NCBI GenBank assembly: GCA_021786555.1
Contig: JAJYNB010000108.1
Location: forward strand, 1 to 43,347
Length of the DNA stretch: 43,347 nt
Direction: 5' to 3'
Source of the DNA: Bacillota bacterium
Lineage (GTDB): Bacteria; Bacillota; Desulfitobacteriia; Desulfitobacteriales; JAJXUE01
Every line of letters begins with the position of its first letter. The stretch's first letter is position 1. This document shows, piece by piece, positions 1,354-43,347 of the stretch. A model generated the notes under the pieces. That model was not told the origin of the DNA. It did not search any database and was given only the letters and a program-made list of their open reading frames with translations. The position numbers and the translations under genes were made by a program.

Positions 1354-1549
1354 AGAAGTATTGGCTGCTGAGGAGGGATGTTAAAGAGGTTTTTGTTGAG
1401 GGAGCAAAATCTGGTGCGGTACCGTCCCAGGGCGCCTTGGGTATCCCCGTCTTGAGCCTGGAGAGCGCCTGTGGGGTCAAAAGCAGAATACAAATTTTTT
1501 GCAAAGGGGGAAAGTAACTGGGGTAACCGATAAACCCAGTGAAGAAATC

Positions 1550-3847: not shown

Positions 3848-4851
3848 CGCTGCCGGCTTTTGAATACCACCGTCCCAGCACTTTGAGTGAAGGCTTAAAA
3901 CTACTAAAGAATAACGCAGGTAAAACTCGACCCCTGGCCGGCGGAACCGACCTCTTGAACAACATGAAAGTTGGCTTGAACCCGGCGGAAGTTCTGGTAG
4001 ACCTTACTGGCATTGAGAGCCTATCGTCTATCGAATGCGCTGTAAACCAGCCTGTGAAGGTGGGCGCTGCGGCCACTATCTGGGATTTGGTGCAGCGCGC
4101 TGAAGTGAAAGAGAACCTTACCGCCCTTTATCAAGCGGGCTGCGGGGTGGGAGCTATCCAACTGCAGCAAATGGGTACCGTAGGCGGCAACCTCTGCCAG
4201 GACACCCGCTGTTGGTTTTATAACCAAACCAAGCACTGGCGCAGAGCGCGTCCATTATGCTACAAAACCGGCGGGGACCAATGCCTAGCGATGAAGAAGT
4301 CCGAAAGATGCCACGCTGCTTTTTGCAGTGATGTGGCGCCCGCTCTCATCGCTTACGATGCCACCGTCAAGCTGTCTTCGGCAGATGGTGAACGTGAAAT
4401 CTCACTGGCGGATTTTTACACCCGCGATGGCAAAACGTACAACGTTTTGCAAGCGGGAGAAATCCTCAGCGAAATAACGGTCCCAGCCGGCGCTTGGCAG
4501 ACGAAGAGCGCCTATGTTAAGCTGCGTTCCCGCAAGAGTATTGATTTTCCCCAGGCAGGCGTGGCTATTGCAGTGACAGAAGAAGGCGGCAAGTTGACCG
4601 GGGGCAAGCTGGTGCTTACCGCTCTGGGCAGCGGGCCCATGGACATCAAGGGGGCGGGCAACTTGTTTAAGGGGCTCAGCGTAGACAGCCTGGATGTGGA
4701 GAAGATCTCCTCCCTGGCCCGGGAGTGCGCGGCGGCAGCTGCCAACGATGTCCTGCCTGTGGCTAACATGACCTGGCGGCCTGCCTACCGGCGCAGGATG
4801 GTTGAAATCCTCATCGAGGAAAGTCTGAAAAAGATATTTATCAACAAGTAG
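3844..4851 (+). CDS. FAD-binding medium subunit with extra 4-Cys insertion loop (4-hydroxybenzoyl-CoA reductase beta-like)
   Basis: CODH/XDH FAD-binding fold (PLAGGTDL). Insertion CQDTRCWFYNQTKHWRRARPLCYKTGGDQCLAMKKSERCHAAFC. The ATGA overlap with the upstream stop indicates translational coupling. Confidence 0.85.
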   Translation: MTLPAFEYHRPSTLSEGLKLLKNNAGKTRPLAGGTDLLNNMKVGLNPAEVLVDLTGIESLSSIECAVNQPVKVGAAATIWDLVQRAEVKENLTALYQAGCGVGAIQLQQMGTVGGNLCQDTRCWFYNQTKHWRRARPLCYKTGGDQCLAMKKSERCHAAFCSDVAPALIAYDATVKLSSADGEREISLADFYTRDGKTYNVLQAGEILSEITVPAGAWQTKSAYVKLRSRKSIDFPQAGVAIAVTEEGGKLTGGKLVLTALGSGPMDIKGAGNLFKGLSVDSLDVEKISSLARECAAAAANDVLPVANMTWRPAYRRRMVEILIEESLKKIFINK

Positions 4852-4874
4852 CTAAACGAAAAAGGGGTGATATC

Positions 4875-5345
4875 ATGGCCACTAAACAAATAATAGTTTT
4901 AAATGTGAACGGCGACGATCACGAAATACTGGTTAAACCGCAGCAGACTCTGTTAGAGGTTCTGCGCGAGACGTTAGGATTTACCGGGACAAAACAGGGC
5001 TGTAACGAAGGTAGCTGCGGCGCCTGCACTGTACTCGTAAACAACAAGCCCACCCTTGCCTGCTCAACCCTTGCCGTGGCTGCTGTGGGTAAAGAGATAA
5101 TGACTATTGAAGGGTTGGCAGGGCAAGACGGGACTCTTCACCCAATCCAGAAATCTTTCGTGGAAAACGGCGCCATTCAATGCGGGTTCTGCACCCCAGG
5201 TATGGTGATGTCAACCAAAAGCTTGCTGGACAGAAATCCAAACCCCAGTGAAGAGGAAATCAAGGAGGGCCTCTCAGGCAACCTCTGCCGCTGCACCGGC
5301 TATGCCAAGATAATTAAGGCTGTCAAAGCCGTTGCAGCTGGGTAA
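4875..5345 (+). CDS. [2Fe-2S] small subunit of the molybdenum enzyme
   Basis: Plant-type motif CNEGSCGACTV plus second-cluster motif CGFCTPG...CRCTGY. 156 aa. RBS AAAGGGG upstream. Confidence 0.9.
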   Translation: MATKQIIVLNVNGDDHEILVKPQQTLLEVLRETLGFTGTKQGCNEGSCGACTVLVNNKPTLACSTLAVAAVGKEIMTIEGLAGQDGTLHPIQKSFVENGAIQCGFCTPGMVMSTKSLLDRNPNPSEEEIKEGLSGNLCRCTGYAKIIKAVKAVAAG

Positions 5346-8798: not shown

Positions 8799-10160
8799 TT
8801 GGTTAACGACAATTTTTTAGGCCGGTTTGAGTTCGGTGAATACTGGAATCCCATGAATGAAACCATGCCGCGTGAGCAGTTGGAAAAGCTGCAGCTGGCC
8901 AAGCTGCAAAGAATCGTAAGTTATGCCTACGAAAAGAGTGCTTTTCACCGCCGAAAGTTTGAAGCAGCGGGATTTCATCCCGATCAACTTCACAGCCTGG
9001 CAGATTTGGACCGCATTCCCTTTACCACCAAAGATGAGTGGCTGGAGGAGCAAAAGCGTTATCCCATGTTCGGGGAAATGCTGACCGCACCACAGGAACT
9101 GGCAACGAGGTATCATGCCACTTCAGGGACATCGGGCAGGACGCCGCTCAGGGTGCTGGACGGGCGTAAGGATTGGCAGTGGGCGGCGGAGATGTGGGCC
9201 TACAGCCTTTATGCCTTTGGCATCCGCTCCCATGACATAGTCTATTACGCCTTCGGGTACGGTTCCTTCATCGGGTTCTGGGGGTCGCACTATGGGTCTG
9301 AAAAGATTGGCGCTCTGACCATAGCCAGCGGGGGGATGTCCACTGAGGCAAGGGTGAAACAGCTGATAGAACTGGGTGCAACCACTCTGTGTGCCACGCC
9401 CACCTATGTCCTGAGAATGGCCCAGGTGGCAAGAGACATGGGTATCGATGTTGCCAGGGAATCCAAGATTAACAAGGTTGTGGTAACCGGGGAACCTGGC
9501 GGCAACGTCCCGGCGACCAGAAAAATGATTGCCGAGAGTTGGGGCGCCGAGGTGTCGGACATTGTGGGAATGACCGAGTCTGGATCCTGCTTCGCTTTTG
9601 AATGCAGGCATCATCCGGGCGGGACGCACATCATGGAGGACCATGTACTGGAGGAAACCTTGGATCCGAAGACCGGTGAACGCCTGGGTTACGGTGAGCG
9701 CGGTGAAAGGATTTTCACTTCCTTTGGCAGGGGCTTCATACCGCTGATTCGTTTCCGCACGGGGGACTTGGTGGTTCGAGTTCCGGGCAGCACCTGCACC
9801 TGCGGCAGGACATGGGATATCTACCAGGGCGGCATTCTGGGCCGGGTGGATGATATGAAGTTAATCCGCGGCACCAATGTGTACCCCTCATCCATTGAGG
9901 CAGTTGTGAGAAAATTCGAAGAAGTGGACGAGTTCCAGATTGTGATAACCCGGGAGAACGGCATAATGGATGAAATTACGGTAGAAATTGAGCTTTCACG
10001 CGAAGCGGAAGAACGGTTCACTGTTGTGTCTGTGCAACTGGCCAAAGACCTGGCCGACGCCCACGAGAACCTGCGCTTCAACATCACACAGGCCGATTGC
10101 GGCTCGCTTCCCCGTTATGAATTAAAGGCACGCAGAATGAAAGACTTGAGGGGGATATAA
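8799..10160 (+). CDS. Phenylacetate-CoA ligase family (PaaK-type aryl-acetate-CoA ligase)
   Basis: N-terminus YWNPMNETMPREQLEKLQLAKLQRIV, P-loop-like TSGTSGRTP, 453 aa. TTG start follows RBS AAGGAGGGG. Confidence 0.8.
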   Translation: MVNDNFLGRFEFGEYWNPMNETMPREQLEKLQLAKLQRIVSYAYEKSAFHRRKFEAAGFHPDQLHSLADLDRIPFTTKDEWLEEQKRYPMFGEMLTAPQELATRYHATSGTSGRTPLRVLDGRKDWQWAAEMWAYSLYAFGIRSHDIVYYAFGYGSFIGFWGSHYGSEKIGALTIASGGMSTEARVKQLIELGATTLCATPTYVLRMAQVARDMGIDVARESKINKVVVTGEPGGNVPATRKMIAESWGAEVSDIVGMTESGSCFAFECRHHPGGTHIMEDHVLEETLDPKTGERLGYGERGERIFTSFGRGFIPLIRFRTGDLVVRVPGSTCTCGRTWDIYQGGILGRVDDMKLIRGTNVYPSSIEAVVRKFEEVDEFQIVITRENGIMDEITVEIELSREAEERFTVVSVQLAKDLADAHENLRFNITQADCGSLPRYELKARRMKDLRGI

Positions 10161-27649: not shown

Positions 27650-28195
27650 ATGCTCAGACCCAAACAGACAGTTGTCACATTCTGTATCATCCCACAAAAG
27701 GAAACGGAGTTGATTTTTTTGGAGGATAAGTTTAAGCGGTTGGAAAAAGACTGGCGCTCAATGATTTTAATTGCCCACGATTTCTTTCACCGTTGGCGGC
27801 AGGTCGTGGAAGGAAGGTATGGAGCCGAAGAGGGTGCGGCTCTGGTCAACCTTTTTTGGGAAGCAGTCGGCCGGGGTACGGGAGAGAGTTATTTGCAGCG
27901 GGGCCGTGATGTTTCAGATCTGGCCCAGGTGGTTCAGGCTATGGCCCGGGCCAGTAAAGTCATGGGAGAAACGGTGCGTGTAGTCAAGGATGGCGATGAG
28001 TACCTGCTGATCCATGACGCCTGCCCGTGGACCGATTCCTTCCGGGATTATGGCGCACCCGGCCAATGCCAGGCAGGGTGTGACCGCTGGTTTGGTACAG
28101 CGGCAAAGACTATCTCCCCCAAGCTTGAGGTCAGAACGGACAGCTGCCTGGCAGCGGGGGACAGCACTTGTACCAGGCGCTACTCCAAAGTCTAA
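27650..28195 (+). CDS. ATC-hydrolase-like (L-2-amino-thiazoline-4-carboxylate hydrolase family) protein
   Basis: The C-terminal pattern DACPW...G...CQAGCDRW...T...G...C resembles that family as I recall it. The start is uncertain: TTG at 27632, ATG at 27650 or ATG at 27761. Confidence 0.4.
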   Translation: MLRPKQTVVTFCIIPQKETELIFLEDKFKRLEKDWRSMILIAHDFFHRWRQVVEGRYGAEEGAALVNLFWEAVGRGTGESYLQRGRDVSDLAQVVQAMARASKVMGETVRVVKDGDEYLLIHDACPWTDSFRDYGAPGQCQAGCDRWFGTAAKTISPKLEVRTDSCLAAGDSTCTRRYSKV

Positions 28196-28308
28196 AATAT
28201 GGCTTCACGCCCTACTTAGGGGGCTTGTCCCTTCAAAAACGGCCGCCTATTCATTGCATTGGTACTGCCAAATTTGCCTGCATCCGGGAAAGAGAAGGTG
28301 ATGATAAG

Positions 28309-30108
28309 ATGGATAGCCGCGACCGTGGCAAGAAATCAGTGTCATCCGAACAGTACCTCCAGGCCTTAGGCGATATCGCCGGGATTATAAACCAGGGAAC
28401 CGATTTTCAGGCTGCGATTGCGTCAATCCTGGAAAAGGTAGACCAGTTTATGGGCTGTGAAAGCGGCGGCATATTATTATACGATGAACACCGGCAAGAA
28501 CTGGTTTTGCAGGAGCCGTCTTTCGGCAGTCAGGGAAGCCGGATTGAGCCCTACCGCCTACCGGTCAGACAGGGCCAGCAGTACAGCCCGGGTACCGCTG
28601 TGGAAGTATTTCTTAACCGCAAACCCTTTGTCTGCAACAGGCCGGCCGAGGACAAAAATGCCAGGCAGGATATAATTTCGCGTTTGGGTATTTATAACTT
28701 TGCCACCATTCCCTTGACTTTGAAAGACAAAGGCTTGGGAGTCTTACATGCAGTCAACAAACGCAATGGTCATTTTACCCGGGCCGATTTGTTATTCCTC
28801 AACACTTTGGGTACTTCCATAGCCATGATTTTGGAGATGGCCCGCCAGCAAAAGACCTTGAGACACTTGGTGCATATTCAAAATGCTTTGACAGAAAAGG
28901 TTTTGCAGGGTCAGGGCTTGCATGAAGTTGTGAACACCTTGACCGATGTTTTGCAGCGGCCCGTATTGCTGGAGGACCGCTTTTTTAAGACCTTACACTT
29001 TGCCAAGCCTCATGCCGGCAGTGATGAAGACGAGAATTTTCTCATGCCGAATCTCACGGATGAATTTTGGTTGTCCGGCATGGGCAGAACCTATTACAGG
29101 GAAATGATCAAGAGCAAAAAACCGGTCAGGCTGCCGGCTCTGCAGGAAATCGGCAGTCCTTATCCGCGCCTGGTTGCGCCTATTGTGGTGGAGGAAGAAA
29201 TATTCGGCTACCTCTCCGTAGGCTGCGTGCACGACGAAGTGGAGAGTTTTGAAATTGCCGCAGTTACTCATGCAGCGACGATTTGTTCGGTGGAATTTGT
29301 CAAGCAGTTGATTGCCTTGAAAGCGGAGAACCGGGTAAAGGGAGATTTGATCAGGGATCTTCTGACCAACCGCCTGCCAATGAGCGACATTCTGGAACGG
29401 GCTTCAATCATGGGGTACGATTTGACGCGTCCTTGTCGGGTGATGGTCCTAAACGCAGGGGAGAAGCCAAGGCCCGATTTGTTGCGGAAATTGTACGAAG
29501 TGGCGTGCGGCTTCGTAAATGCCCGAAATCCGCACACCATGGTGCTCACCCTTGACGGCGCGGTTGTGGTCTTGACTTACATGGAAGGTCTGGGCAGCGG
29601 GCCTTTTCTCCCTTATCTGCCGTTAGCCGAGAATTTGCTGCAAAACTGTGAAGAACTGTTAGGAGTAAAAGTTCAGATTGGCATGGGGCGGGTCGTATCA
29701 GAACCTGGTCAGATAAATCAATCCTACCAGGAAGCATTATTCGCTTTACGGGCCCTGCCTCAGTTTGCTGCCAAGAAGAACATTCTGAGTTTTGAGGACA
29801 TGGGGATTTTCCGTCTCCTTTCCAAAGCACGGGAAAAGGATGAACTGGTTGATTTCGCCCAAGAACTGCTGCGGCCGCTCTTAGACTATGACCAGGAAAA
29901 TAATACTTTTCTGCTCCAGTCCCTGCAAGCTTATTTGGACTGCAACTGCAGTGTCCAAAAAACTGCCCAGAAGTCGTATTTACACCCTAATACTTTGCTG
30001 TACCGTCTAAGGAGAATTCAAGAAATAACCGGATTTAACTTAAACGACACGGAAGACCGCTTAAACCTGCAAATCGCCATCAGGGTTTTCCGATTTTATG
30101 CCTCCTGA
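28309..30108 (+). CDS. GAF-domain / PucR (CdaR)-family transcriptional regulator
   Basis: N-terminal GAF-like region (GVLHAVNKRNGHFTRADLLFLNTLG). C-terminal PucR-type HTH (QKTAQKSYLHPNTLLYRLRRIQEITG). The ATG at 28309 follows RBS GAAGGTGA. Confidence 0.8.
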   Translation: MDSRDRGKKSVSSEQYLQALGDIAGIINQGTDFQAAIASILEKVDQFMGCESGGILLYDEHRQELVLQEPSFGSQGSRIEPYRLPVRQGQQYSPGTAVEVFLNRKPFVCNRPAEDKNARQDIISRLGIYNFATIPLTLKDKGLGVLHAVNKRNGHFTRADLLFLNTLGTSIAMILEMARQQKTLRHLVHIQNALTEKVLQGQGLHEVVNTLTDVLQRPVLLEDRFFKTLHFAKPHAGSDEDENFLMPNLTDEFWLSGMGRTYYREMIKSKKPVRLPALQEIGSPYPRLVAPIVVEEEIFGYLSVGCVHDEVESFEIAAVTHAATICSVEFVKQLIALKAENRVKGDLIRDLLTNRLPMSDILERASIMGYDLTRPCRVMVLNAGEKPRPDLLRKLYEVACGFVNARNPHTMVLTLDGAVVVLTYMEGLGSGPFLPYLPLAENLLQNCEELLGVKVQIGMGRVVSEPGQINQSYQEALFALRALPQFAAKKNILSFEDMGIFRLLSKAREKDELVDFAQELLRPLLDYDQENNTFLLQSLQAYLDCNCSVQKTAQKSYLHPNTLLYRLRRIQEITGFNLNDTEDRLNLQIAIRVFRFYAS

Positions 30109-30311: not shown

Positions 30312-30436
30312 AGAATAAAATTAGAAGATTTTTCATGGGAAGGGGGGCAGGGCAAGGTTTCATTGCCAAACCGGGGATGCTCATAAGGAGAAGTTTGTCG
30401 GTAAAAACAAGAGACCGTGAAAGAGGGGGAAAAGGA

Positions 30437-31678
30437 TTGAGAACCTGGCGTTTTTCGCGCGGCTTGTCATTTGTTATGATCCTAGTGTTCTTGCTGGTAT
30501 TAGTCTTAAGCGGTTGTGGAACAACCGGAGGAACGAGTGCAAAATCGGGCTCCTCCGGTCTGACAATCAAGGTAGGTATTATTGACACCTATACCGGACC
30601 GCCCACCGCCTACACCCAGGATGCCTTGGACGGATTCAAGCTTGCTGTTAACGACATTGCCAAAGAGGGAGGTCCAAAAATTGAATATGTAACCCGCGAT
30701 GACCAATATAAGGTAGACCAGGCCTTAAGCTGGGCCAAAGAACTGGTGATGAATGAAAAAGTAGACGTACTGGCCGGGACCATCAACAGTGCGGTATCCT
30801 TGGCAGTATCCCAATACGCCAAGCAGAACAAGATTCCCTTTATCAACTGGGGCGCTCTCAGTGATGAAATTACCGGCGCCAAGGGACATCGCTACGTTTT
30901 CAGTACGCCGCCTAATACTGCAATGATTGCCAAGACAGGGGCAATTCAAATTTCCCAGCTGCCTTATACCAAGTTTTGGCTGGCAGGCAGTGATTACGAG
31001 TATGGCCACCTGGTTGTCAGTGATTTTTGGACTGACCTTCAGAAGCTTAAGCCAGGGGTACAAAAATTGGGTGAAACCTGGTGGAAGATTGGTGAACCGG
31101 ATTTTACACCCTACCTGACCGCAATCAGGGCGGCAAAGCCCGATGCCGTAATTGTAGGCGCCGGTGCAGCCGACATTATTCCTTTCATGAAAGCTTTAAA
31201 AGCGACAGGTTTGTCGAAGCAAATACCTGTTTGGATACCCCAGTCGATTGATGCAGGCACATTAAGAGCCTTGGGCAATGATCAGCCGGAAGGTGTTTTG
31301 GGCACGAATCAGTATTTTTATTACTACCCCGATACAGCCGCAAACAAACAGTTCGAACAAGAGTTTAAGCAAGCCACAAACCGTGAACCGGGTTTTGCCG
31401 GTTTGTATGGCTATATGGCTGGAAAATATCTCGGGGCTGCCATTCAAAAAGCCGGCAGCACTGACCGGGAAAAAATCGTGGACGCGCTGGAAGGGCTGAC
31501 TCTTGATACACCGGTCGGCCAACTTACGATGCGAAAAGAAGACCACCAATCACTCGATCCCCTGTTCTACGGCAAAACCCCCGGCACAGGCGTGGTCGCC
31601 AACGGCCTTGTCCAGTTGTCCCCTGACAAGGTAATGCCTTCGGTTGAAGACGTAATGAATGCAAGAGCCAAAAAGTAG
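30437..31678 (+). CDS. ABC transporter substrate-binding lipoprotein (Leu/Ile/Val-binding-protein family), system 2
   Basis: Signal peptide with lipobox LSGC. The TTG start at 30437 follows RBS GAGGGGGA; the ORF track start at 30335 would add a non-signal extension. Confidence 0.8.
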   Translation: MRTWRFSRGLSFVMILVFLLVLVLSGCGTTGGTSAKSGSSGLTIKVGIIDTYTGPPTAYTQDALDGFKLAVNDIAKEGGPKIEYVTRDDQYKVDQALSWAKELVMNEKVDVLAGTINSAVSLAVSQYAKQNKIPFINWGALSDEITGAKGHRYVFSTPPNTAMIAKTGAIQISQLPYTKFWLAGSDYEYGHLVVSDFWTDLQKLKPGVQKLGETWWKIGEPDFTPYLTAIRAAKPDAVIVGAGAADIIPFMKALKATGLSKQIPVWIPQSIDAGTLRALGNDQPEGVLGTNQYFYYYPDTAANKQFEQEFKQATNREPGFAGLYGYMAGKYLGAAIQKAGSTDREKIVDALEGLTLDTPVGQLTMRKEDHQSLDPLFYGKTPGTGVVANGLVQLSPDKVMPSVEDVMNARAKK

Positions 31679-31688
31679 AAGAATCTAT

Positions 31689-31721
31689 AGGTTAATAGGC
31701 GGCTCTGCCGCCTATTAACCT
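31689..31721 (+). other. 15-bp perfect intercistronic stem-loop between the binding-protein and permease genes (system 2)
   Basis: aggttaataggcggc-tct-gccgcctattaacct. No T-tract follows; the next RBS starts immediately after. Confidence 0.6.
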
Positions 31722-31734
31722 TAGGGGGAATACG

Positions 31735-32613
31735 ATGAGTGTATCCATGCTGGCCAGTCAGCTGCTGGTGGGTTTGAGTCGAGGGATGATTTACTTCATT
31801 GTGGCTGCCGGATTGACTTTGGTTTTTGGGGTACTAAGGGTCATCAATTTTACCCACGGCTCCTTTTATATGCTGGGGGCCTTTATCGGGTACAGCGTGG
31901 CTGCTGGGATTGGACATGGGTCAGCGGGGTTTTGGCTGATGTTGGTCTTGGCTCCCTTAGCGGTAGCGGGCATCAGTTTGCTGGTGGAGCGTGGTTTTCT
32001 CCAGTTTGTCTATCGCCGCGAACATCTGATTCAGGTGCTGCTCACCTATGCCTTAGTCCTGATAGCCGGCGATCTGGTCAAATTCTTTTGGGGCAGCCAG
32101 TATAGATCTTTATCCACTCCGCCAATCTTTACCGGTTCGTTTGCGACAGGGAGCATTACCGTTCCCAAGTACAATGTGTTTCTGCTGCTGGTGGGTCCCC
32201 TGGTTGCGCTCGGCCTTTGGTTGTTCTTAAGTCACACCCGTTTCGGCAAAATCTGCCGGGCGACCGCCACTGACAGGGAAATGGTCGACATTTTGGGGGT
32301 CAACAGTACCTGGATTTTTGCAGCAGTTTTTGCCTTGGGCGGCTGGCTGGCCGGCCTTGGCGGGGCTCTAATGGCGCCGGTGGTTAATATTTCGCTCGGC
32401 ATGGACGCCAATACCATTATTTACGCTTTTCTGATAGTGGTAGTAGGCGGTCTGGGCAACATCTGGGGAGCTTTGATCAGTTCCTTGATAATCGGAGTGG
32501 GAGAAGCCTTTGGGGCACTCTTTATGCCGGACTGGGCAGTTGTACTGCCTTACATTATTACGGGAGTACTGTTGATTTTACGACCGTCGGGATTGCTCAA
32601 ATCTGTTTGGTAA
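31735..32613 (+). CDS. ABC transporter permease, LivH family (system 2)
   Basis: 292 aa polytopic membrane protein. RBS AGGGGGA. Confidence 0.85.
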   Translation: MSVSMLASQLLVGLSRGMIYFIVAAGLTLVFGVLRVINFTHGSFYMLGAFIGYSVAAGIGHGSAGFWLMLVLAPLAVAGISLLVERGFLQFVYRREHLIQVLLTYALVLIAGDLVKFFWGSQYRSLSTPPIFTGSFATGSITVPKYNVFLLLVGPLVALGLWLFLSHTRFGKICRATATDREMVDILGVNSTWIFAAVFALGGWLAGLGGALMAPVVNISLGMDANTIIYAFLIVVVGGLGNIWGALISSLIIGVGEAFGALFMPDWAVVLPYIITGVLLILRPSGLLKSVW

Positions 32614-32626
32614 AGAAGGGAAAAGT

Positions 32627-33622
32627 ATGTCGATGAGTTGGCTGGACAGATCAAAGGAAAAAACAGCCAGGGTTATCCCGTTCCGGCCCATCTTGCTGGT
32701 TAGCCTGCTGGGGGTAGCGGCTTTACTCCCGCCAATCCTGCCAGCCTACTACCTTTACCTGCTGACCACTGTCTACATGACGGCGCTGTTAGCCACCAGC
32801 CTTAATTTTGTGCTTGGGTATGGGGGCCTCCTGCAGCTGCATCACGCGGTATTTTTTGGGGTAGGCGCTTATACTGTGGCCCTGGTCTTAACCAAAACTA
32901 CTTGGCCTTTTTGGCTGGCGGCCGTCTTGGCCCCGTTAGTTGCGGCCCTGCTGGCAGCGGTGATCGGCTGGTTTTGCGTCCGGCTGAGGGGGCTCTATTT
33001 TGGTATGCTCACCTTGGCTTTGGGCCAGTTGGTCTGGGCCATCATCTACAAGTGGCGCAGCTTCACCTCTGGGGACGACGGCATTCACGGCATCCCGCTG
33101 CCCGGTTTGGTGAGTTCCCCCACCTCAGTGTATTATATCAACCTCGGTGTACTGGTAGTGTGCTTGCTGATCCTGTATGCAGTGATCAAGTCGCCCTTTG
33201 GCCTGACTCTTGTTGCTATCCGGGATAACCCGGTGCGCAGCCAGAGCGTAGGGGTTAACATCAAGCGGCACCAGTTGGCGGCTTTTGTCCTTTCGGGTTT
33301 CTTTGCCGGGGCAGCCGGTGTCCTGTTTGTGCTGATTGAGCAGTCTGTATCTCCGTCTCTCCTCTACTGGAGCAAATCGGCAGAGATTCTGATCATGGAT
33401 CTGCTGGGCGGTATGGCTGTATTTCTGGGTCCGAGTCTCGGGGCCGCGATTCTGGTGGTCTTGTCCATGGTAGTTGGTACGTATATGGACTACTGGCTGT
33501 TGGTCATGGGACTGATCCTCTTGCTGCTGGTCTTGTTCCTGCCCCAAGGAGTCCTGGGTTACCTGCAGGAGCTTTTCGGGCGCAAAACTGTACAGGGAGG
33601 GGAACGGGATGCTGCAAATTGA
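32627..33622 (+). CDS. ABC transporter permease, LivM family (system 2)
   Basis: 331 aa polytopic membrane protein. Confidence 0.85.
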   Translation: MSMSWLDRSKEKTARVIPFRPILLVSLLGVAALLPPILPAYYLYLLTTVYMTALLATSLNFVLGYGGLLQLHHAVFFGVGAYTVALVLTKTTWPFWLAAVLAPLVAALLAAVIGWFCVRLRGLYFGMLTLALGQLVWAIIYKWRSFTSGDDGIHGIPLPGLVSSPTSVYYINLGVLVVCLLILYAVIKSPFGLTLVAIRDNPVRSQSVGVNIKRHQLAAFVLSGFFAGAAGVLFVLIEQSVSPSLLYWSKSAEILIMDLLGGMAVFLGPSLGAAILVVLSMVVGTYMDYWLLVMGLILLLLVLFLPQGVLGYLQELFGRKTVQGGERDAAN

Positions 33623-34346
33623 GTCCCTGGCCAAATCCTTCTCAGGCTTTCAGGCTGTGGGAGATGCCAGCCTGAGTGTGCCGCGGGGGCAGGTGGTAGC
33701 GGTCATTGGCCCAAACGGGGCCGGAAAAAGTACTCTGTTTAATCTTATTACGGGTCATATTAAGCCTGATGCGGGGCGCATTGTGTTTAAGGGAAGGGAA
33801 ATCACCGCCCTGCCCCCGCACCAGGTCTCACGTCTGGGTGTTGCCCGCTCTTTCCAGTTGGTGAATATCTTCCCTCGCCTTACTGTGTTCGAAAACGTCC
33901 AGGTAGCTGTACTGGCCCGCCTGAAGCAAAGCGGCAGGCTGTTTACTCCGGCCAGACGGTTGGTGGTACAGGAAACGTTTGAGGTTTTACACAAGCTTGG
34001 TCTCAAAACCAGTTCAGACCGGATTTGCAGTTCCCTCTCTTATGGGGACCAGAAAGTACTGGAGATAGCTATTTCCCTTGGCAGCAGCCCGGAACTGCTT
34101 TTGCTCGACGAACCCACGGCCGGCATGTCCCCGGAAGAGACCAGAACCATTGTCCAGCTTATCAAGCAGCTGTCCCAGAGGGAAGGACTGAGCATTTTGT
34201 TGACCGAGCATGATATGGACCTGGTGTTTGATGTTGCCCAGCGCATCATGGTGATGCACCAGGGGCGCACAATTGCCGAAGGACATCCTGCCGAGGTAAG
34301 AAGGGACAGAGCAGTGCAAAACGCTTATTTGGGGGAGACGGGCTGA
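33609..34346 (+). CDS. ABC transporter ATP-binding protein, LivG family (system 2)
   Basis: Walker A GPNGAGKST, signature LSYGDQK, Walker B LLLLDEP. Confidence 0.9.
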   Translation: MLQIESLAKSFSGFQAVGDASLSVPRGQVVAVIGPNGAGKSTLFNLITGHIKPDAGRIVFKGREITALPPHQVSRLGVARSFQLVNIFPRLTVFENVQVAVLARLKQSGRLFTPARRLVVQETFEVLHKLGLKTSSDRICSSLSYGDQKVLEIAISLGSSPELLLLDEPTAGMSPEETRTIVQLIKQLSQREGLSILLTEHDMDLVFDVAQRIMVMHQGRTIAEGHPAEVRRDRAVQNAYLGETG

Positions 34347-35044
34347 TGTTGGAAGTTAAGGACATCCACGCGTATTACGGGCTGAGCCATATCCTGTTCG
34401 GCGTATCCCTAAGCGTGAAGCAGGGTGAAGCGGTCTGCTTGCTGGGGCGGAACGGGGTTGGCAAAACCACCACTCTAAAGAGCATTATGGGTCTTAATCC
34501 GCCCAAAAGCGGCAGAGTATGGTTTAAGGGGCAGGATATCACCGCACTGCCAACCCGCCGCAGGGTATCCCTGGGAATCCGTTATGTTCCGGATACACGG
34601 CGGATTTTTGCGGACCTGACTGTGCGCGAAAACATGGAGGTTGCCGCATCAGGTATCAAACAAGCTGGCGAGTGGACCATAGACAAGGTATTTGACTTGT
34701 TCCCGGTGCTGAAAAGCTTTTCGGACCGCCGGGGCGGGCACCTTAGCGGGGGCGAGCAGCAGATGCTGGCAATAGGCCGGGCCCTCTTGGGTACTCCACA
34801 GCTGCTGATCCTGGATGAACCCACGGAAGGTTTAGCTCCGTTAATCGTGGAGGAGCTGGAAGAACAGATTCTAATGCTCAAGGCTGCGGGAATTTCCATC
34901 CTGCTGGCGGAGCAGAACTTGAAATCTGCTCTAAAAATATCGAACCGCTGTTATGTAGTTGAGAAAGGTCAGGTGCGCTTTCAGGGATCAGTGGAGGAAC
35001 TGCGGCAAAACGCGGAAGTAAGAGCCAAGTATTTGCTGGTGTAA
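34346..35044 (+). CDS. ABC transporter ATP-binding protein, LivF family (system 2)
   Basis: Walker A GRNGVGKTT, signature LSGGEQQM, Walker B LLILDEP. TGATG overlap with the upstream gene. Confidence 0.9.
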   Translation: MLEVKDIHAYYGLSHILFGVSLSVKQGEAVCLLGRNGVGKTTTLKSIMGLNPPKSGRVWFKGQDITALPTRRRVSLGIRYVPDTRRIFADLTVRENMEVAASGIKQAGEWTIDKVFDLFPVLKSFSDRRGGHLSGGEQQMLAIGRALLGTPQLLILDEPTEGLAPLIVEELEEQILMLKAAGISILLAEQNLKSALKISNRCYVVEKGQVRFQGSVEELRQNAEVRAKYLLV

Positions 35045-35093
35045 GACTCCGGCGCATTTAGTGGAAGCTGAGAAGTTTGAGGGAGCGGGCATA

Positions 35094-36878
35094 ATGCAAA
35101 AAGTGCTGCTAATGGGCAATGAAGCGATTGCCAGGGGAGCCATCGAGGCAGGAGTCATGGTTGCAACGGCATATCCCGGCACACCATCCACAGAGGTATT
35201 CTCCACTTTGGCGGACCTGGCGCCTGAATACGGCTTTTACGCTGAATGGTCAGTGAACGAGAAGGTGGCTCTGGAAGTAGCTGCCGGCGCCGCATATACC
35301 GGGGCGAGAGCTATGGTGTCAATGAAGCAAATGGGGCTCAATGTGGCATCGGATGCTTTGATGAGCCTTGCCTATATCGGGGTGAAGGGCGGGCTGGTTT
35401 TGGTGGTTGCGGATGACCCGGGTCCCCAAAGCTCCCAGACGGAGCAGGACACGAGGAAGTTCGCCGCCTTTGCAGGTGTGCCGGTTTTTGACCCGGCGAC
35501 ACCCCAGGAAGCCAAGGACATGGTGCAAGCAGCTTTTGAATTGTCGGAGAAGTTTGGCCTGCCGGTAATTTTGCGTCCGACTACACGGGTAAGCCATGTG
35601 AGCCAGGACATTACCTTGGGGGATGTGAAGAAGCTGGAACGCTCCTGTCATTTTCAACGCGACCCCAGATGGGTAATTTTGCCGAAACTCGCATACAAAC
35701 AACATATATGGCTGGACAGAGTACAGGCTGAGGTGGCGGAAGAGTTTAATGATTCACCTTTCAACCGGCTGAGCCTGAAAGGAAAAGCCGGAATCGTCAC
35801 CTCGGGAGTCGCTTACAACTACGTGTTGGAAGCCTGCCAGGAACTGAAACTGGAGCCTTCATTGCTAAAAATAGGCACACCCTACCCGCTGCCGCCAAAG
35901 CCCGCGCTGGAAATGCTTGCAAGCTGCGGGCAGGTCCTGGTGATTGAGGAGCAGGAAGCGGTGGTTGAGGACCAACTGATAAAGCTGGCCTGGCAGAACA
36001 GGCTGGGTACTGCAATTTCGGGCAAGCACGACTCTTATGTCCCCAGGGAAGGGGAACTGAGTGTTGATAAGGTCAAGACCGTGCTGATTTCTTATTTCAA
36101 TTTGCCGCGGGACGACATGCCTGAGATGGATGTGGCGCCCCTTCCGCTCCGGGCGCCGGGGCTTTGTGCCGGCTGCCCCCACCGGGCCAGCTTCCTGGCT
36201 TTTAAGGAGCTGATGAGAAGGGATGATGTGGTCTTCACCGGGGACATTGGCTGCTATACCCTCGGCGCTGAACCGCCGCTGGAGATGCTTGACACCTGTC
36301 TTTGCATGGGCGCCGGGATTACTTTGGCGGTAGGAATGAGCAAGATAGAGCCGGAGCGGAAACATGTGGCGTTTATCGGAGATTCAACCTTTTTTCACAG
36401 CGGCGTGCCTGGCCTGATCGATGCGGTATACAACAACGCCAATATAGTGGTGGTGGTGCTTGATAACGGGACCACGGCCATGACCGGGCATCAGCCGCAC
36501 CCGGGTACGGCCCGAACCGCCACAGGGGTAAATGGCGCAGTGCTGGACCCAGGGGAGATAGCCCGCTCCTGCGGGGTTAAGTTTGTCAGGGAAGTTGACC
36601 CCTATCTCGTCTCAGAGATGAAAACCTGTGCCCGTGAAGCACTGGAGTTTGACGGACCGAGATTTATAGTGGCCAGGCGGGCGTGTGTCCTGCAGGCGGA
36701 TTCCCTAAGAGCATACTCCATAGACGCGGAGCTCTGCACAGGGTGCGAATTATGCATCAAAAAACTGGGATGCCCTGCTATAGTCAAAAACCAGGTAGTC
36801 CAGATATCTGCTGCTTGTGCCGGGTGTGGGGTTTGCGCCCGGATTTGTCCCAGCCAGGCCATTTGCGAGGTGGTGTAA
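35094..36878 (+). CDS. iorA: Indolepyruvate (arylpyruvate):ferredoxin oxidoreductase alpha subunit
   Basis: N-terminus LLMGNEAIARGAIEAGVMVATAYPGTPSTE, a TPP-binding region (GDSTFFHSG), and C-terminal 2x[4Fe-4S] motifs CTGCELCIKKLGCP and CAGCGVCARICP. Confidence 0.85.
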   Translation: MQKVLLMGNEAIARGAIEAGVMVATAYPGTPSTEVFSTLADLAPEYGFYAEWSVNEKVALEVAAGAAYTGARAMVSMKQMGLNVASDALMSLAYIGVKGGLVLVVADDPGPQSSQTEQDTRKFAAFAGVPVFDPATPQEAKDMVQAAFELSEKFGLPVILRPTTRVSHVSQDITLGDVKKLERSCHFQRDPRWVILPKLAYKQHIWLDRVQAEVAEEFNDSPFNRLSLKGKAGIVTSGVAYNYVLEACQELKLEPSLLKIGTPYPLPPKPALEMLASCGQVLVIEEQEAVVEDQLIKLAWQNRLGTAISGKHDSYVPREGELSVDKVKTVLISYFNLPRDDMPEMDVAPLPLRAPGLCAGCPHRASFLAFKELMRRDDVVFTGDIGCYTLGAEPPLEMLDTCLCMGAGITLAVGMSKIEPERKHVAFIGDSTFFHSGVPGLIDAVYNNANIVVVVLDNGTTAMTGHQPHPGTARTATGVNGAVLDPGEIARSCGVKFVREVDPYLVSEMKTCAREALEFDGPRFIVARRACVLQADSLRAYSIDAELCTGCELCIKKLGCPAIVKNQVVQISAACAGCGVCARICPSQAICEVV

Positions 36879-37484
36879 GTGTTGAATATTGTTATCAGCG
36901 GTGTAGGGGGGCAGGGCACGTTATTGGCAGCCAGGGCTATCGCCGAGGCTGCAATCTGCAAAGGTTTTGAGGTGAGGACCTCTGAAACCATCGGCATGGC
37001 CCAGCGGGAGGGCTCGGTGGTCAGTCATGTAAGGCTCGGCCATAATCTCAACGGCGCCCTAATACCGGACCACAAGGCGGACATTCTCTTGGGGTTTGAA
37101 CTGGCCGAAACTGTAAGAGCAATAGGCAAGCTCAAACCCGGAGGAGTAATCATCTCCAATACCCACCGGATAATGCCGGTGAGCGTCTCCTTGGGGAGTG
37201 CCGGCTATCGGAGTGACAAAATGATTTCCAGCCTGGCACAGGCAACTGACCGGCTGATTTTGCTGGATGCCACGCAAGCGGCCTCGAAGGCCGGCGGCTA
37301 CAAAAGCGCTAACGTAGTTCTGCTGGGAGTGCTTTCCGGGTTGCCTGAACTGCCCTTTCATCCTGCTGACCTTTGGCAAGCCATCATGCAGCACGTTTCA
37401 CCCCGCACCAGGCAGATCAATCAGGCGGCCTTTGAACTTGGGCAACGGATAATCGCTGAAAACAGAAACACTGTTTCCGGTTAG
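36879..37484 (+). CDS. iorB: Indolepyruvate:ferredoxin oxidoreductase beta subunit
   Basis: N-terminus ISGVGGQGTLLAARAI, 201 aa, directly after iorA. Confidence 0.85.
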   Translation: MLNIVISGVGGQGTLLAARAIAEAAICKGFEVRTSETIGMAQREGSVVSHVRLGHNLNGALIPDHKADILLGFELAETVRAIGKLKPGGVIISNTHRIMPVSVSLGSAGYRSDKMISSLAQATDRLILLDATQAASKAGGYKSANVVLLGVLSGLPELPFHPADLWQAIMQHVSPRTRQINQAAFELGQRIIAENRNTVSG

Positions 37485-39765: not shown

Positions 39766-39791
39766 TCACAACAGGAAGAGAGGAGATGTAT

Positions 39792-40685
39792 ATGTCGCGT
39801 CACAAGGTGGTGATTTCCCTGCCGGAAGCCGCCGCGATGATAAAGGATGGAGACCGGGTGGGTATCGGTGGCTTTGTCACCACCAACAAGCCCTTGGGGA
39901 TACTGCGAGAGATTATGCGCCTGCGGCGACAGGATTTGACAGTTGTTGCACCACCCTCAAGCATGGAAGTTGACTTACTTCTGGGGCTGGGAATGGTTAG
40001 GAAACTGATAACCCCATACCTGGGTGCTGAGGCTATCGCACCCCTCGGGCCTTTTCACAGCGGTTGGGCCGGAAAACACTTTGCGATTGAAGAGACAGAC
40101 CTGGGTACCCTGGTGGCGGGACTGCGCGCATATGCCCTGGCGCTGCCCTTTATGCCCACCCGAGGTATAGTGGGCACGTCGATTGCCAGCCTGAATCCAA
40201 CTTTGCGCCCTGTAGAAGATCCTTTTGGCGGTCCGCCCTTAATCGCAGTGCCGCCACTGGAAATGGATGTAGTCCTGATCCACGCCAGCCAAGCGGACTG
40301 TTACGGCAACGTACAGCACTTGGGTGCGGTGTTTCTCGACCCGTTGCTGGCCCAGGCCGGCAAAAAAGTCATCGTCCAGGTGGAAAAAATTGTTTCCTCG
40401 GAAGAAATCCGCCGCAACCCGGGAAATACCACCCTTGCCTGTGAGTTTGTTGATGCCGTGGTCCTGGCGCCCTACGGCGCCCATCCCATGGCGTCTCAAA
40501 ACTACTACCGGGTAGATGCAGACTTTCTCAACGAGTATGTGCGGGTGGCCAAGGCCTGTGTCAAAGGTCAGCCTGAGCAGTTTGAGGAATTTGTGGCCAG
40601 ATACATCGATGCTCCCGCCGGGCTTAGCGAGTACCTGGAGAGGGTTGGCCTGGAAAGACTATTTGCCTTGGGGGAGGGAGCTTAA
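39792..40685 (+). CDS. Family I CoA-transferase subunit A (glutaconate CoA-transferase GctA-like)
   Basis: N-terminus SLPEAAAMIKDGDRVGIGGF, 297 aa, followed by a B subunit. The ATG at 39792 follows RBS GAGAGGAG. Confidence 0.75.
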   Translation: MSRHKVVISLPEAAAMIKDGDRVGIGGFVTTNKPLGILREIMRLRRQDLTVVAPPSSMEVDLLLGLGMVRKLITPYLGAEAIAPLGPFHSGWAGKHFAIEETDLGTLVAGLRAYALALPFMPTRGIVGTSIASLNPTLRPVEDPFGGPPLIAVPPLEMDVVLIHASQADCYGNVQHLGAVFLDPLLAQAGKKVIVQVEKIVSSEEIRRNPGNTTLACEFVDAVVLAPYGAHPMASQNYYRVDADFLNEYVRVAKACVKGQPEQFEEFVARYIDAPAGLSEYLERVGLERLFALGEGA

Positions 40686-40687
40686 AC

Positions 40688-41467
40688 ATGCAGGCTACAG
40701 CAAAGGAATTGGCAGCAATTTTCATAGCCCGGCAAATCAACAATGGTGATTACATATCCCTTGGCACCAATTTGCCTGTTCCGGCTGCGGGGGTACTATT
40801 GGCGCAGATAACCCATGCGCCCGATGCCAAAATCAACGTGCTGAGCTATTTCGTCAACCTGGCGGGCATGGACAGTTTCCCGGACTTAGGCCAGATTGCC
40901 AACCCCAGTGTGGTGCGGTGGGCAGACGGGGTTATGCCGGTAGAGCAACTGATTTACGGCATCCGGCGCATGGACCTGTGCTTTGCCGGCGGGATCCAGA
41001 TCGACCGCTACGGAAATACCAATCTGATCGGTATCGGAGATGACCCTCAGAACCTGAAATTCCGCGGTCCGGGCAGCGTAGGTACCGCCACAGTGATGGC
41101 CAATTGCCGCAAATTCTTCATCTATACCAACGATCATTCACCCCGCACGTTCGTTCCCAAGTGTGATTTCATTTCCGCTTTTGGTTGGGGGGACGGAGGA
41201 GCAGACAGCAGAACCAGGCTGGGACTGCCCGGCGAGGGACCGCGCTTTGTCATAACCCCCAAGGCAATAATGGATTTTGACGAAACCAGCAAGGCTATGC
41301 GGTTAAAGCACCTCCTGCCTGGGACCAGTCTGGAGGAGCTGCAGGCAAGCGCGGGCTTTGAACTACTGGTCCCGGACCAACTGCCGGAGATGGAACCCCC
41401 CAGCGCGGAAGAGCTCAGTCTGCTGCGCACCAGGGTGGATGCCAAAGGGTACCTGCGGCAGACCTAA
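40688..41467 (+). CDS. Family I CoA-transferase subunit B
   Basis: 259 aa. Starts 2 nt after the subunit A stop. Composition is typical of beta subunits (GGIQIDRYGNTNL). Confidence 0.75.
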   Translation: MQATAKELAAIFIARQINNGDYISLGTNLPVPAAGVLLAQITHAPDAKINVLSYFVNLAGMDSFPDLGQIANPSVVRWADGVMPVEQLIYGIRRMDLCFAGGIQIDRYGNTNLIGIGDDPQNLKFRGPGSVGTATVMANCRKFFIYTNDHSPRTFVPKCDFISAFGWGDGGADSRTRLGLPGEGPRFVITPKAIMDFDETSKAMRLKHLLPGTSLEELQASAGFELLVPDQLPEMEPPSAEELSLLRTRVDAKGYLRQT

Positions 41468-41584: not shown

Positions 41585-41699
41585 GTGTGTCAGGGGGACG
41601 GGTACACTGACACTAGCTTAACCGAGTGGGAAGAGGGACTGCAGTCAGTGAAACGGTAAGAAAGGTTGGGCTGTCAATGTACCTGTCCCCCTGACACTA
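41585..41699. repeat. MITE-like element copy 1 (115 nt, 26-bp terminal inverted repeats)
   Basis: Left end gtgtcagggggacgggtacactgaca (41587-41612). Right end tgtcaatgtacctgtccccctgacac (41672-41697), which is 24/26 complementary to the left end. No coding capacity. Confidence 0.8.
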
Positions 41700-41938: not shown

Positions 41939-42053
41939 GTGTGTCAGGGGGACGGGTACACTGACACTAGCTTAACCGAGTGGGAAGAGGGACTGCAGTC
42001 AGTGAAACGGTGAGAAAGGTTGGGCTGTCAATGTACCTGTCCCCCTGACACTA
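41939..42053. repeat. MITE-like element copy 2 (115 nt), direct orientation
   Basis: 114/115 identical to copy 1, with a single A/G difference in aaacggtRagaaagg. Confidence 0.8.
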
Positions 42054-42108: not shown

Positions 42109-43347
42109 ATGGTGGACGCCAGTAAGGATTTAGAGGAAGCTTTACATGAGTGGTACCTAAAGAACGGCGTGGACCACTACCCTGTGGTGTCGACCAGCGG
42201 CGGCCTGCCTGTAAAGGCCCTGTATACCCCGCTGGAAACGGCAGGAACAGAATATATTGAGAAAATCGGCCTTCCGGGCGAGTACCCCTTTACCAGGGGA
42301 GTATACCCGCTGATGTACCGCAGCAAGGTTTGGACCATGCGCCAGTACTCGGGCTATGCCACGGCCAAGGAAAGCAACGAACGCAACAAATTCCTTTATC
42401 AGCAGGGAGTGACCGGGTTAAGTGTGGCTTTCGATTTGCCCAGCCAGATGGGGTACGACTCAGACGACCCGGAAATCGTGGATGAGGTCGGCAGGGTCGG
42501 AGTAGCTATCGATACCCTGGCCGACATGGAATTATTGTTTAAAGACATACCCCTGGATCAGATCAGCACATCATTTACCATCAACGCCATCACCCCGATA
42601 ATCCTGGCCATGTATATCGCGGTGGGCGAGAAGCAGGGGATTCCCCGGGCCAAGCTTACCGGAACGGTGCAGAACGATATCCTGAAAGAGTACTTTTCCC
42701 GCGGAGCATTTATCTTCCCGCCCCGCCCAGCCCTGCGCATGATAGCGGACACATTTAGTTTTTGCAGCCAGGAGATGCCCAAGTTTGTGCCGGTCAGCGT
42801 TTGCGGCTATCACATCCGGGAAACCGGAGCGGACGCGGTGCAGGAGATCGCTTACGCCTTTCTCAACGCCATGGCTTACATAGATGAGGCCCTGGCCAGG
42901 GGGCTGAACATTGATGACTTTGCGTCGAGGATCAGCTTTAACTTTGCCGCCCACATGAACCTGTTTGAAGAGGTTGCCAAATTCCGGGCTGCCAGGCGCA
43001 TCTGGGCCAGGCTCTTGCGCGAACACTATCAGGCCAAAAACCCCAAGTCGTGGAAGATGCTGTTCTTTGCCGGCACGGGCGGCAGCACCTATACCGCGCA
43101 GCAACCGGAGAACAATATCGTGCGCGGCACGATTGAAACCTTGGCCATAGTATTAGGCGGCGGACAGGCGCTTACTGTAAATACCAAAGACGAAGGTCAT
43201 GCCATCCCCTCGGCAAAGGCAACCCTTACCGCCTTGCGCACGCAGCAGCTTGTGGCCCTGGAGTCCGGGGTGACGGACACAGTCGACCCTCTGGGCGGGT
43301 CCTATTACATTGAGAGCCTGACTGATGGAATGGAAGCAAGCATTCTG
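42109..43347 (+). CDS. Methylmalonyl-CoA mutase-family (coenzyme B12-dependent acyl-CoA mutase) catalytic subunit, 3'-truncated by the window edge
   Basis: Absent from the ORF track because no stop lies in the window. My own translation gives YPFTRGVYPLMYRSKVWTMRQYSGYATAKESN, GLSVAFDLPSQMGYDSDDP, GTVQNDILKEY and CGYHIRETG, colinear with MutB as I recall it. The ATG at 42109 follows GAAAGGAG/TGAGG. Confidence 0.85.
   Translation, partial: MVDASKDLEEALHEWYLKNGVDHYPVVSTSGGLPVKALYTPLETAGTEYIEKIGLPGEYPFTRGVYPLMYRSKVWTMRQYSGYATAKESNERNKFLYQQGVTGLSVAFDLPSQMGYDSDDPEIVDEVGRVGVAIDTLADMELLFKDIPLDQISTSFTINAITPIILAMYIAVGEKQGIPRAKLTGTVQNDILKEYFSRGAFIFPPRPALRMIADTFSFCSQEMPKFVPVSVCGYHIRETGADAVQEIAYAFLNAMAYIDEALARGLNIDDFASRISFNFAAHMNLFEEVAKFRAARRIWARLLREHYQAKNPKSWKMLFFAGTGGSTYTAQQPENNIVRGTIETLAIVLGGGQALTVNTKDEGHAIPSAKATLTALRTQQLVALESGVTDTVDPLGGSYYIESLTDGMEASIL

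Follow-up and report, generated by a model that had tools for sequence, protein, structure and literature searches.

To our knowledge, the anaerobic breakdown of the plant hormone (auxin) indoleacetate is known biochemically only from denitrifiers of the Aromatoleum type, and very few acyl-CoA mutases are known to take bulky substrates, its mutase IaaGH being among them. IaaGH is the phenylsuccinyl-CoA/benzylmalonyl-CoA mutase encoded in the iaa operon of Aromatoleum aromaticum and A. evansii (PMC8360864). The DNA analysed here (the window) is a stretch of 43,347 nucleotides that corresponds to the entire contig C37 (JAJYNB010000108.1) of a metagenome-assembled genome (MAG) of a Bacillota bacterium (GCA_021786555.1; 434 contigs, 84% complete; C11, C37, C69, C72, C85, C256 and C308 designate contigs of this genome). 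At its end, in positions 42109..43347 of the forward strand, the window encodes the large, substrate-binding subunit of a split adenosylcobalamin-dependent acyl-CoA mutase. We consider it fairly probable that this protein is an arylsuccinyl-CoA/benzylmalonyl-CoA mutase taking part in a Firmicute variant of the anaerobic catabolism of indoleacetate or tryptophan. This reading is based on the protein family, the residues, the phylogeny, the synteny and the reciprocal best hits, and we infer the substrate, the role of the replaced residues in the pocket and the order of the steps.

The reading frame remains open up to the end of the contig, which truncates the gene after residue 413 of 551. The first-pass annotation, made from the DNA letters alone, had recognised this truncation and the colinearity with the catalytic chain of methylmalonyl-CoA mutase (MCM), and both points are borne out. 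The fragment matches the profile PF01642 (MM_CoA_mutase) colinearly over the positions 2-383/512, with a score of 528.8 bits (cut-off 22.1) and an E-value of 1.8e-158. The rest of the gene and the B12-binding subunit, which that annotation had proposed to recover, are both present on a 59.9-kb contig of ENA. The protein P0002 encoded there (551 aa) is 100% identical to the window protein across 413/413 aa, and at full length it scores 664 bits with TIGR00641 (cut-off 303.8). This contig was treated as the same strain because it displays 99.8% nucleotide identity with the window end in the overlap and because its downstream part matches the host contigs C256 and C85 at 99.9%. A search of the host MAG assembly for the remaining 3' portion of the gene was negative. 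Directly downstream of the large subunit (MutL) on the same-strain contig, outside the window, lies the B12-binding partner MutS (140 aa, PF02310), which carries the DxHxxG motif as DGHDRG. On the strength of these matches the reading frame is identified as a real large TIM-barrel subunit of a two-subunit adenosylcobalamin-dependent acyl-CoA mutase. Among the named homologues, the closest belong to MAGs of Desulfitobacteriaceae and Desulfosporosinus. No orthologue above 60% identity was detected in 40 related genomes, and the gene is therefore considered as accessory.

In MCM, a Tyr/Arg pair holds the free carboxylate of the substrate and a Tyr-His pair holds the thioester. The residues of the window protein were mapped by alignments to the MCM of P. 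shermanii (1REQ_A), the human MCM (2XIJ) and HcmA. The carboxylate contact Tyr89 corresponds to Tyr80 (42346..42348, forward strand as for all the following codons), the Y of the motif RQY(A/S)G, and the second carboxylate contact, Arg207, corresponds to Arg198 (42700..42702), whereas Tyr243-His244 are represented by Tyr234-His235 (42808..42813). The retention of the carboxylate-binding residues had been claimed before and holds. Arg198 and Tyr234-His235 had been placed correctly, but Tyr89 had been assigned to Tyr70 (42316-42318). The latter residue, in the sequence PLMY, aligns with Tyr79, and Tyr80 is the correct equivalent. Gln197 also has an equivalent in the window protein, and Asn366 is kept as Asn358. 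Since both the Tyr/Arg and the Tyr-His pairs are kept, the reaction is most likely an MCM-type 1,2-shift of the -CO-SCoA group on a succinyl-type CoA ester. The fold is that of the MCMs, including the split Bacillota-type enzyme encoded on C72, and the same radical chemistry is expected.

Three changes in the barrel had been overlooked in the first-pass annotation. His328 is replaced by Phe320 and Gln330 by Gly322 (the segment Phe320-Ala321-Gly322, 43066..43074, stands in place of His328-Ser329-Gln330 and represents a clade signature), and His364 is replaced by Thr356 (43174..43176). We compared nine positions among the homologues (Tyr89, Arg207, Tyr243, His244, His328, Gln330, Ser362, His364 and Asn366 in MCM numbering), which we take to belong to barrel strands 7 and 8 and to face the substrate channel of MCM. 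The signature YRYH-FG-[AS][TS]N is found in 25/25 homologues that are at least 63% identical to the window protein, and the canonical signature YRYH-HQ-SHN in 91/94 homologues at 57-63% identity. The IaaG proteins have YRYH-I[GA]-TAC in all 120 of 120 orthologues, the IaaG-seeded search having returned orthologues only at 84% identity or above. As read from the alignment, IaaG displays analogous changes at the positions of His328, Gln330 and His364, and the motif PVSVCGYHIRE is common to IaaG and the window protein. The replacement by Phe, Gly and Thr would give a larger and more hydrophobic pocket, able to house a bulky substituent.

The IaaG reference was obtained from the published iaaF cloning primer (PMC8360864), searched as an exact DNA pattern. 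The match was found in Aromatoleum buckelii U120, in a gene for an acyl-CoA dehydrogenase that has the GGG motif diagnostic of IaaF (PMC8360864). Its neighbours on the same strand encode an AMP-ligase, HydA, HydB, a small B12 subunit, IaaG (537 aa) and a molybdenum (Mo) enzyme of the xanthine dehydrogenase (XDH) type. The window protein shares 46% identity with this IaaG, which is 50% identical to the host MCM of C72 and 42% to the mutase of C11. Searching 1.84 billion representatives with a profile yielded 150 diverse relatives (50%-identity representatives, P0242-P0391). Only 16 of the 118 relatives with a length of 500-730 aa have the canonical Y/R and H/Q pattern; dozens of the 50% representatives keep Tyr/Arg and differ at the positions 328 and 330. 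All members of this large radiation without H/Q are named "methylmalonyl-CoA mutase" in the databases, and they are presumably mutases of substituted succinyl-CoA esters. NCBIfam contains no model that is specific to a lineage of the superclade described below.

A phylogenetic tree was obtained by maximum likelihood (43 rows, LG+C20 with posterior mean site frequencies). The window clade is supported by values of 100/99 and the IaaG clade by 99/97. Together with several unnamed lineages, both are included in a superclade of 23 rows (support 97/98), which is apart from the group containing the MCMs of P. shermanii and human and the host mutases of C72 and C11. In approximately unbiased (AU) tests, whose groups were defined with knowledge of the tree so that the results are indicative only, the union of the window clade with the housekeeping split MCMs was rejected (delta lnL 67.6, p 0.00046), and the window and IaaG clades as exclusive sisters gave a p value of 0.17 (above 0.05). 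By residues and phylogeny, the window protein is classified as a cousin of IaaG and probably not as its orthologue, and it belongs neither to the MCMs nor to the ethylmalonyl-CoA (ECM), isobutyryl-CoA (ICM) or 2-hydroxyisobutyryl-CoA (HCM) mutases.

The first-pass annotation had also admitted plain succinyl-CoA/methylmalonyl-CoA metabolism, in which the enzyme would be an ordinary MCM, interconverting succinyl-CoA and methylmalonyl-CoA, with an adjacent ligase of the SucCD type. The equivalents of Tyr89, Arg207, Tyr243 and His244 agree with this, as do the SucCD-like genes located directly downstream of the mutase genes, whose alpha subunit is above the SucD cut-off, and a carboxyltransferase similar to mmdA in one homologous locus (L054). 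However, His328, Gln330 and His364 are lost in the window protein, though fixed in 91/94 canonical relatives and in the MCMs of the PDB, and the SucC-like subunit is below the SucC cut-off (328 vs 370). In addition, the host already has a complete canonical set: SucCD, on C69 and the edge of C72, precede the canonical MCM of C72, which is followed by a fusion of a B12-binding and a glyoxalase (epimerase-type) domain, a carboxyltransferase, a biotin carboxylase and a biotin carboxyl carrier protein. This MCM is 56% identical to the window protein. No epimerase was found in the gene island of the window, and an accessory gene is not what is expected of this rival. Neither a tight grouping with housekeeping MCMs nor downstream epimerase or decarboxylase genes were observed: the first is contradicted by the AU test, and MutL is followed by the B12 subunit, the SucCD-like genes and HydAB. 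Plain methylmalonyl-CoA metabolism is thus disfavoured and we regard it as improbable.

An even smaller probability is given to a mutase of the ECM, ICM or HCM type. The best match of the window protein among the PDB sequences is HcmA (4R3U), with 502 bits vs 452 for the human MCM, which probably reflects the common split architecture. The markers of ICM and HCM (Phe or Ile in place of Tyr89, Gln in place of Arg207, Asp at position 117) are absent, and with Tyr80 and Arg198 the window protein also departs from the pattern of the ICM, HCM and PCM types, in which Phe, Ile or Leu is combined with Gln; the position of Tyr89 is occupied by Phe in the ICM-like paralogue of the host and by Ile in HcmA. 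Concerning the ECMs, a tblastn search of plasmids for a named ECM was negative, and the references were identified by their synteny with Ccr, one of them adjoining a Ccr gene (TIGR01751, 611 bits). These putative ECMs are 36-39% identical to the window protein, have the motif YGVQVN and are localized across the tree, on the H/Q side. Residues and tree largely rule out an ECM, ICM or HCM identity. The ICM/HCM-like paralogue of C11 (L085, 1453-7137) carries Phe and Gln at the positions of Tyr89 and Arg207. It is found with MeaB, an adenosyltransferase of the CobA type and a GctAB-type CoA-transferase that has the catalytic Glu, then with an acyl-CoA dehydrogenase, an enoyl-CoA hydratase (ECH) and a 3-hydroxyacyl-CoA dehydrogenase (HADH). 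A very divergent fourth mutase-like pair is encoded on C308 (L086, 6536-13053), and its large subunit is without equivalents of Tyr89, Arg207 and Tyr243-His244. This pair adjoins an AMP-ligase and HydAB genes similar to acetone carboxylase (HydA of 707 aa; HydB of 761 aa with a C-terminal acetone-carboxylase gamma domain).

The gene island extends from the window into the same-strain contig. Its order is Liv ABC system, IorA, IorB, Octopine_DH-like protein, HADH, GctA-like and GctB-like proteins, two repeats similar to miniature inverted-repeat transposable elements (MITEs) and MutL, then MutS, SucC-like, SucD-like, HydA, HydB, V4R, an NDP-forming acyl-CoA synthetase, a PaaK-like ligase, an XDH-type enzyme (FAD, FeS and Mo subunits), thiolase, DUF35 and MaoC. 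Two of these enzymes link the island with the iaa cluster. The Mo subunit downstream of the mutase and that of the A. buckelii iaa Mo enzyme are reciprocal best hits at 47% identity, among about 18 host paralogues (699 vs 432 bits forward, 620 vs 440 reverse). HydA is likewise a reciprocal best hit of the iaa HydA (39-40% identity; 491 vs 299 bits forward, 389 vs 315 reverse), and HydB gives 228 vs 126 bits in the reverse search. HydA favours the model of the caprolactamase subunit CapA (659 bits) over the acetophenone-carboxylase models (375 bits), while both HydA and HydB are below the CapAB equivalog cut-offs. From these scores, HydAB is assigned to the ATP-dependent lactamase type (CapAB, IaaCE) rather than to the carboxylase type. 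The arylsuccinyl-CoA/benzylmalonyl-CoA rearrangement of anaerobic indoleacetate degradation, to which the first-pass annotation had compared the locus, fits well with these reciprocal best hits and with the superclade shared with IaaG.

About 18 genes for XDH-family Mo subunits were counted in this 3-Mb, 84%-complete genome, with three sets within the island. This expansion appears unusually large and suggests a broad hydroxylation of N-heterocycles or aromatic compounds.

The adjacency of MutLS and HydAB is observed in every window-clade locus examined (89, 75, 74, 65, 63 and 63% identity to the window mutase). The locus at 75% (L083) is a compact operon headed by a PucR-type regulator, of the same kind as that of the window, with GctAB-like proteins, MutLS, HydAB, V4R, PaaK and XDH. 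That at 74% (L054/55) contains MutLS, HydAB, PaaK, XDH and ACS, the mmdA-like carboxyltransferase being upstream. In one of the loci at 63% (L056/57), MutLS and HydAB are accompanied by a HisC-type aminotransferase and by an enzyme of the TrpB2 type, which scores 752 bits against a cut-off of 366. L056 (8140-14837) has the genes of these two enzymes, of a class V aminotransferase and of a PGDH-like dehydrogenase inserted between those of the mutase and HydAB, which suggests an indole-to-tryptophan entry route. The other locus at 63% (L082; Logan contig SRR8648376, 5549-14815) is an operon similar to iaa around P0073, a basal member of the window clade. It encodes PaaX, a short-chain dehydrogenase/reductase, MaoC, MutL, an acyl-CoA dehydrogenase, a family III CoA-transferase, HydAB, a thioesterase and a protein similar to arylmalonate decarboxylase (Amdase). 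The acyl-CoA dehydrogenase is 51% identical to IaaF with the diagnostic GGG motif (as SGGGTSE), and the family III transferase is found in place of the GctAB-like pair.

The remaining loci bear on another explanation, in which the mutase would act on a different substituted succinyl-CoA, derived from the ATP-dependent opening of another N-heterocyclic or cyclic-amide carboxylate (candidate substrates are other heteroaryl-acetates, reduced pyridone- or pyrrolidone-acetates and aminoalkyl-succinates). The closest locus (L016-18, 89%) has MutLS and HydAB plus GctAB-like, SucCD-like and V4R genes, and L016 contains TRAP-DctPQM transporter, fumarase-like and dihydroorotate dehydrogenase-like genes instead of XDH and PaaK. 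The locus at 65% (L081) has MutLS and HydAB with an NMT1-type ABC system and a FAD oxidase. The very large radiation of Y/R mutases without H/Q, the pocket residues unlike those of IaaG and the expansion of the XDH family, which suggests a broad N-heterocycle metabolism, are also consistent with such a substrate. On the other side, IorAB, PaaK-like ligases, PaaX and TrpB2 in four loci indicate indole or arylacetate compounds, the reciprocal best hits single out the Mo enzyme and HydAB from many paralogues as the specific counterparts of the iaa enzymes, and an IaaF orthologue stands beside the basal clade member P0073. As the main rival, this explanation is considered possible but rather unlikely, at about one chance in a few.

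Upstream of the mutase gene are localized two genes of the family I CoA-transferase fold (PF01144), a GctA-like alpha subunit (39786..40685, forward strand; best PDB match 1POI_A, 128 bits) and a GctB-like beta subunit (40688..41467, forward strand; 1POI_B, 118 bits in a whole-length alignment). They had been described in the first-pass annotation as a two-subunit CoA-transferase. The two PF01144 genes are indeed present, but their identity as a transferase is doubtful. The catalytic Glu of family I is carried by the beta subunit in the motif (S/V/Y)E(N/S/A)G. At the position of this Glu in the sequence IIVESG of GctB, the window protein has Leu52 (nt 40841-40843), in the sequence INVLSY. The same position is occupied by L or M in 5/5 beta subunits found beside window-clade mutases (window, L016, L056, L081 and L083), whereas the C11 paralogue keeps the catalytic Glu (IYEAG). 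A ping-pong CoA transfer is unlikely because this Glu is missing, and the pair is probably not a CoA-transferase. The next-best solved relatives are AibAB (3-methylglutaconyl-CoA decarboxylase, 5MZW) and IpdAB (steroid ring-opening hydrolase, 6CO6/6CON), which have the two-subunit GctAB fold without being transferases and, like the pair of the window, are without the beta-subunit Glu. However, the pair is nearer to the true GctAB (118-128 bits) than to AibAB and IpdAB (29-113 bits).

Two roles may be considered for this pair. One option is an intramolecular shift of CoA between the two carboxyls of the arylsuccinyl-CoA, via a cyclic anhydride derived from the substrate, which would replace IaaL. 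Such a shift would be needed because the opening of oxindole-acetyl-CoA leaves the CoA distal to the aryl carbon and the mutase needs it proximal. Alternatively, the pair could decarboxylate the benzylmalonyl-CoA product and so replace IaaF.

In the proposed route of indoleacetate or tryptophan catabolism, indoleacetyl-CoA or indoleacetate would come from indolepyruvate via IorAB, or from uptake followed by activation by a PaaK-like ligase. The XDH-type Mo enzyme would hydroxylate C2 and the ATP-dependent lactamase HydAB would open the oxindole ring, after which the SucCD-like ligase and the GctAB-like protein without Glu may supply the correct CoA regioisomer. The mutase would then interconvert 2-(2-aminophenyl)succinyl-CoA and (2-aminobenzyl)malonyl-CoA, which is the step of IaaGH. 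Finally, the MaoC hydratase, HADH and the thiolase with DUF35 could shorten the side chain to 2-aminobenzoyl-CoA.

Compared with IaaGH, the window mutase shares the split large and small subunits, the conserved Tyr, Arg and Tyr-His residues, the loss of MCM His328, Gln330 and His364, the common superclade and the proximity of the lactamase and the Mo-hydroxylase. It differs by its separate clade, by a host that is a strictly anaerobic organism of the Firmicute type and not a denitrifying betaproteobacterium, and by an island that has the GctAB-like proteins without Glu, the SucCD-like proteins, V4R, the NDP-forming acyl-CoA synthetase, the PaaK-type ligases and IorAB. Several observations weigh against the assignment as an arylsuccinyl-CoA/benzylmalonyl-CoA mutase. 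The identity to IaaG is only 46%, and the pocket residues are F/G/T/N, as opposed to I/A/A/C (with G as a variant of the first A) in IaaG. In the host genome, the top BLAST match of IaaG is the housekeeping MCM of C72 (512 bits), ahead of the window protein (473 bits). The superclade contains a polytomy, and the position of the window clade beside all H/Q-type enzymes gives a p-AU of 0.065, above 0.05. The argument drawn from the pocket is itself inferential: the AlphaFold2 model of the mutase has a predicted local distance difference test score (pLDDT) of 75, with values below 50 at residues 323-329 and 359-367, which are exactly the signature loops. Neither an IaaF-type (GGG) acyl-CoA dehydrogenase nor, concerning the fate of 2-aminobenzoyl-CoA, a BamA/Oah ring hydrolase above the cut-off was found in the 84%-complete genome, and no family III transferase of the IaaL type was found in the island. 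Lastly, L016 has no XDH or PaaK within 10 kb. Nothing usable emerged from full-text literature searches on an iaa-like cluster in Firmicutes or on the residues His328/Gln330 of MCM.

The other genes of the window are as follows, all on the forward strand unless given without a strand. A three-subunit Mo-hydroxylase of the XDH family (1499..5345, Pfam) is one of the three sets of the island; the best match of the iaa Mo enzyme is another of these sets, downstream of the mutase. A protein of the HpaB/4-hydroxybutyryl-CoA-dehydratase family (7276-8703, no strand given) is far under the HpaB cut-off, and its gene, in the setting of a strict anaerobe, is flanked by those of an enoyl-CoA hydratase and a PaaK-like ligase. 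The PaaK-like aryl-acetate-CoA ligase (8799..10160) matches AMP-binding_C_2 and scores 293 bits on TIGR02155, under the cut-off; the second PaaK-like copy is downstream of the mutase, outside the window. The PucR-type regulator (28168..30108) has the domain matches GAF-GGDEF_2-HTH_30. It is followed by a Liv-type ABC uptake system composed of a binding protein, two permeases and two ATPases (30335..35044, Pfam), and by the indolepyruvate:ferredoxin oxidoreductase subunits IorA and IorB (35061..37484). IorA is above the IOR_alpha equivalog cut-off (TIGR03336, 785 vs 651 bits), whereas the IOR_beta-type models match under their cut-offs. The segment 37498..39578 contains a gene of the Octopine_DH family (Pfam), then the HADH gene (NF006125, 462 bits, cut-off 427).

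The interval between the GctB-like gene and the mutase gene is 641 nt in the window vs 15-55 nt in four homologous loci. It is stretched by two palindromic MITE-like repeats of 115 nt (41585-41699 and 41939-42053, unstranded), identified from the sequence and by blastn. Elsewhere in the genome this repeat is represented only by diverged or partial copies (19 blastn matches on 15 contigs, five of at least 100 nt). Nothing credible was found in this 641-nt interval when a cobalamin riboswitch or another RNA was sought.

Tryptophan-derived indoles are abundant substrates for anaerobes similar to Desulfitobacteriaceae. Tentatively, and with less confidence than for the mutase assignment, the locus could represent a route, not described before, by which a strictly anaerobic Firmicute converts tryptophan or indoleacetate into 2-aminobenzoyl-CoA, with a second, independently specialised mutase clade marked by Phe/Gly/Thr and a new catalytic role for the GctAB fold without Glu. 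The window clade is recognisable from its sequence, since Tyr/Arg are kept and His328/Gln330/His364 are replaced by Phe/Gly/Thr; it is tied to an ATP-dependent lactamase in every locus examined and occurs in Desulfitobacteriaceae-like anaerobes. The analysis of the locus corrects the default annotation as "methylmalonyl-CoA mutase" that all the database relatives bear. It also gives candidate specificity determinants for the engineering of B12-dependent mutases and offers a candidate new activity for a CoA-transferase fold that appears catalytically "dead".

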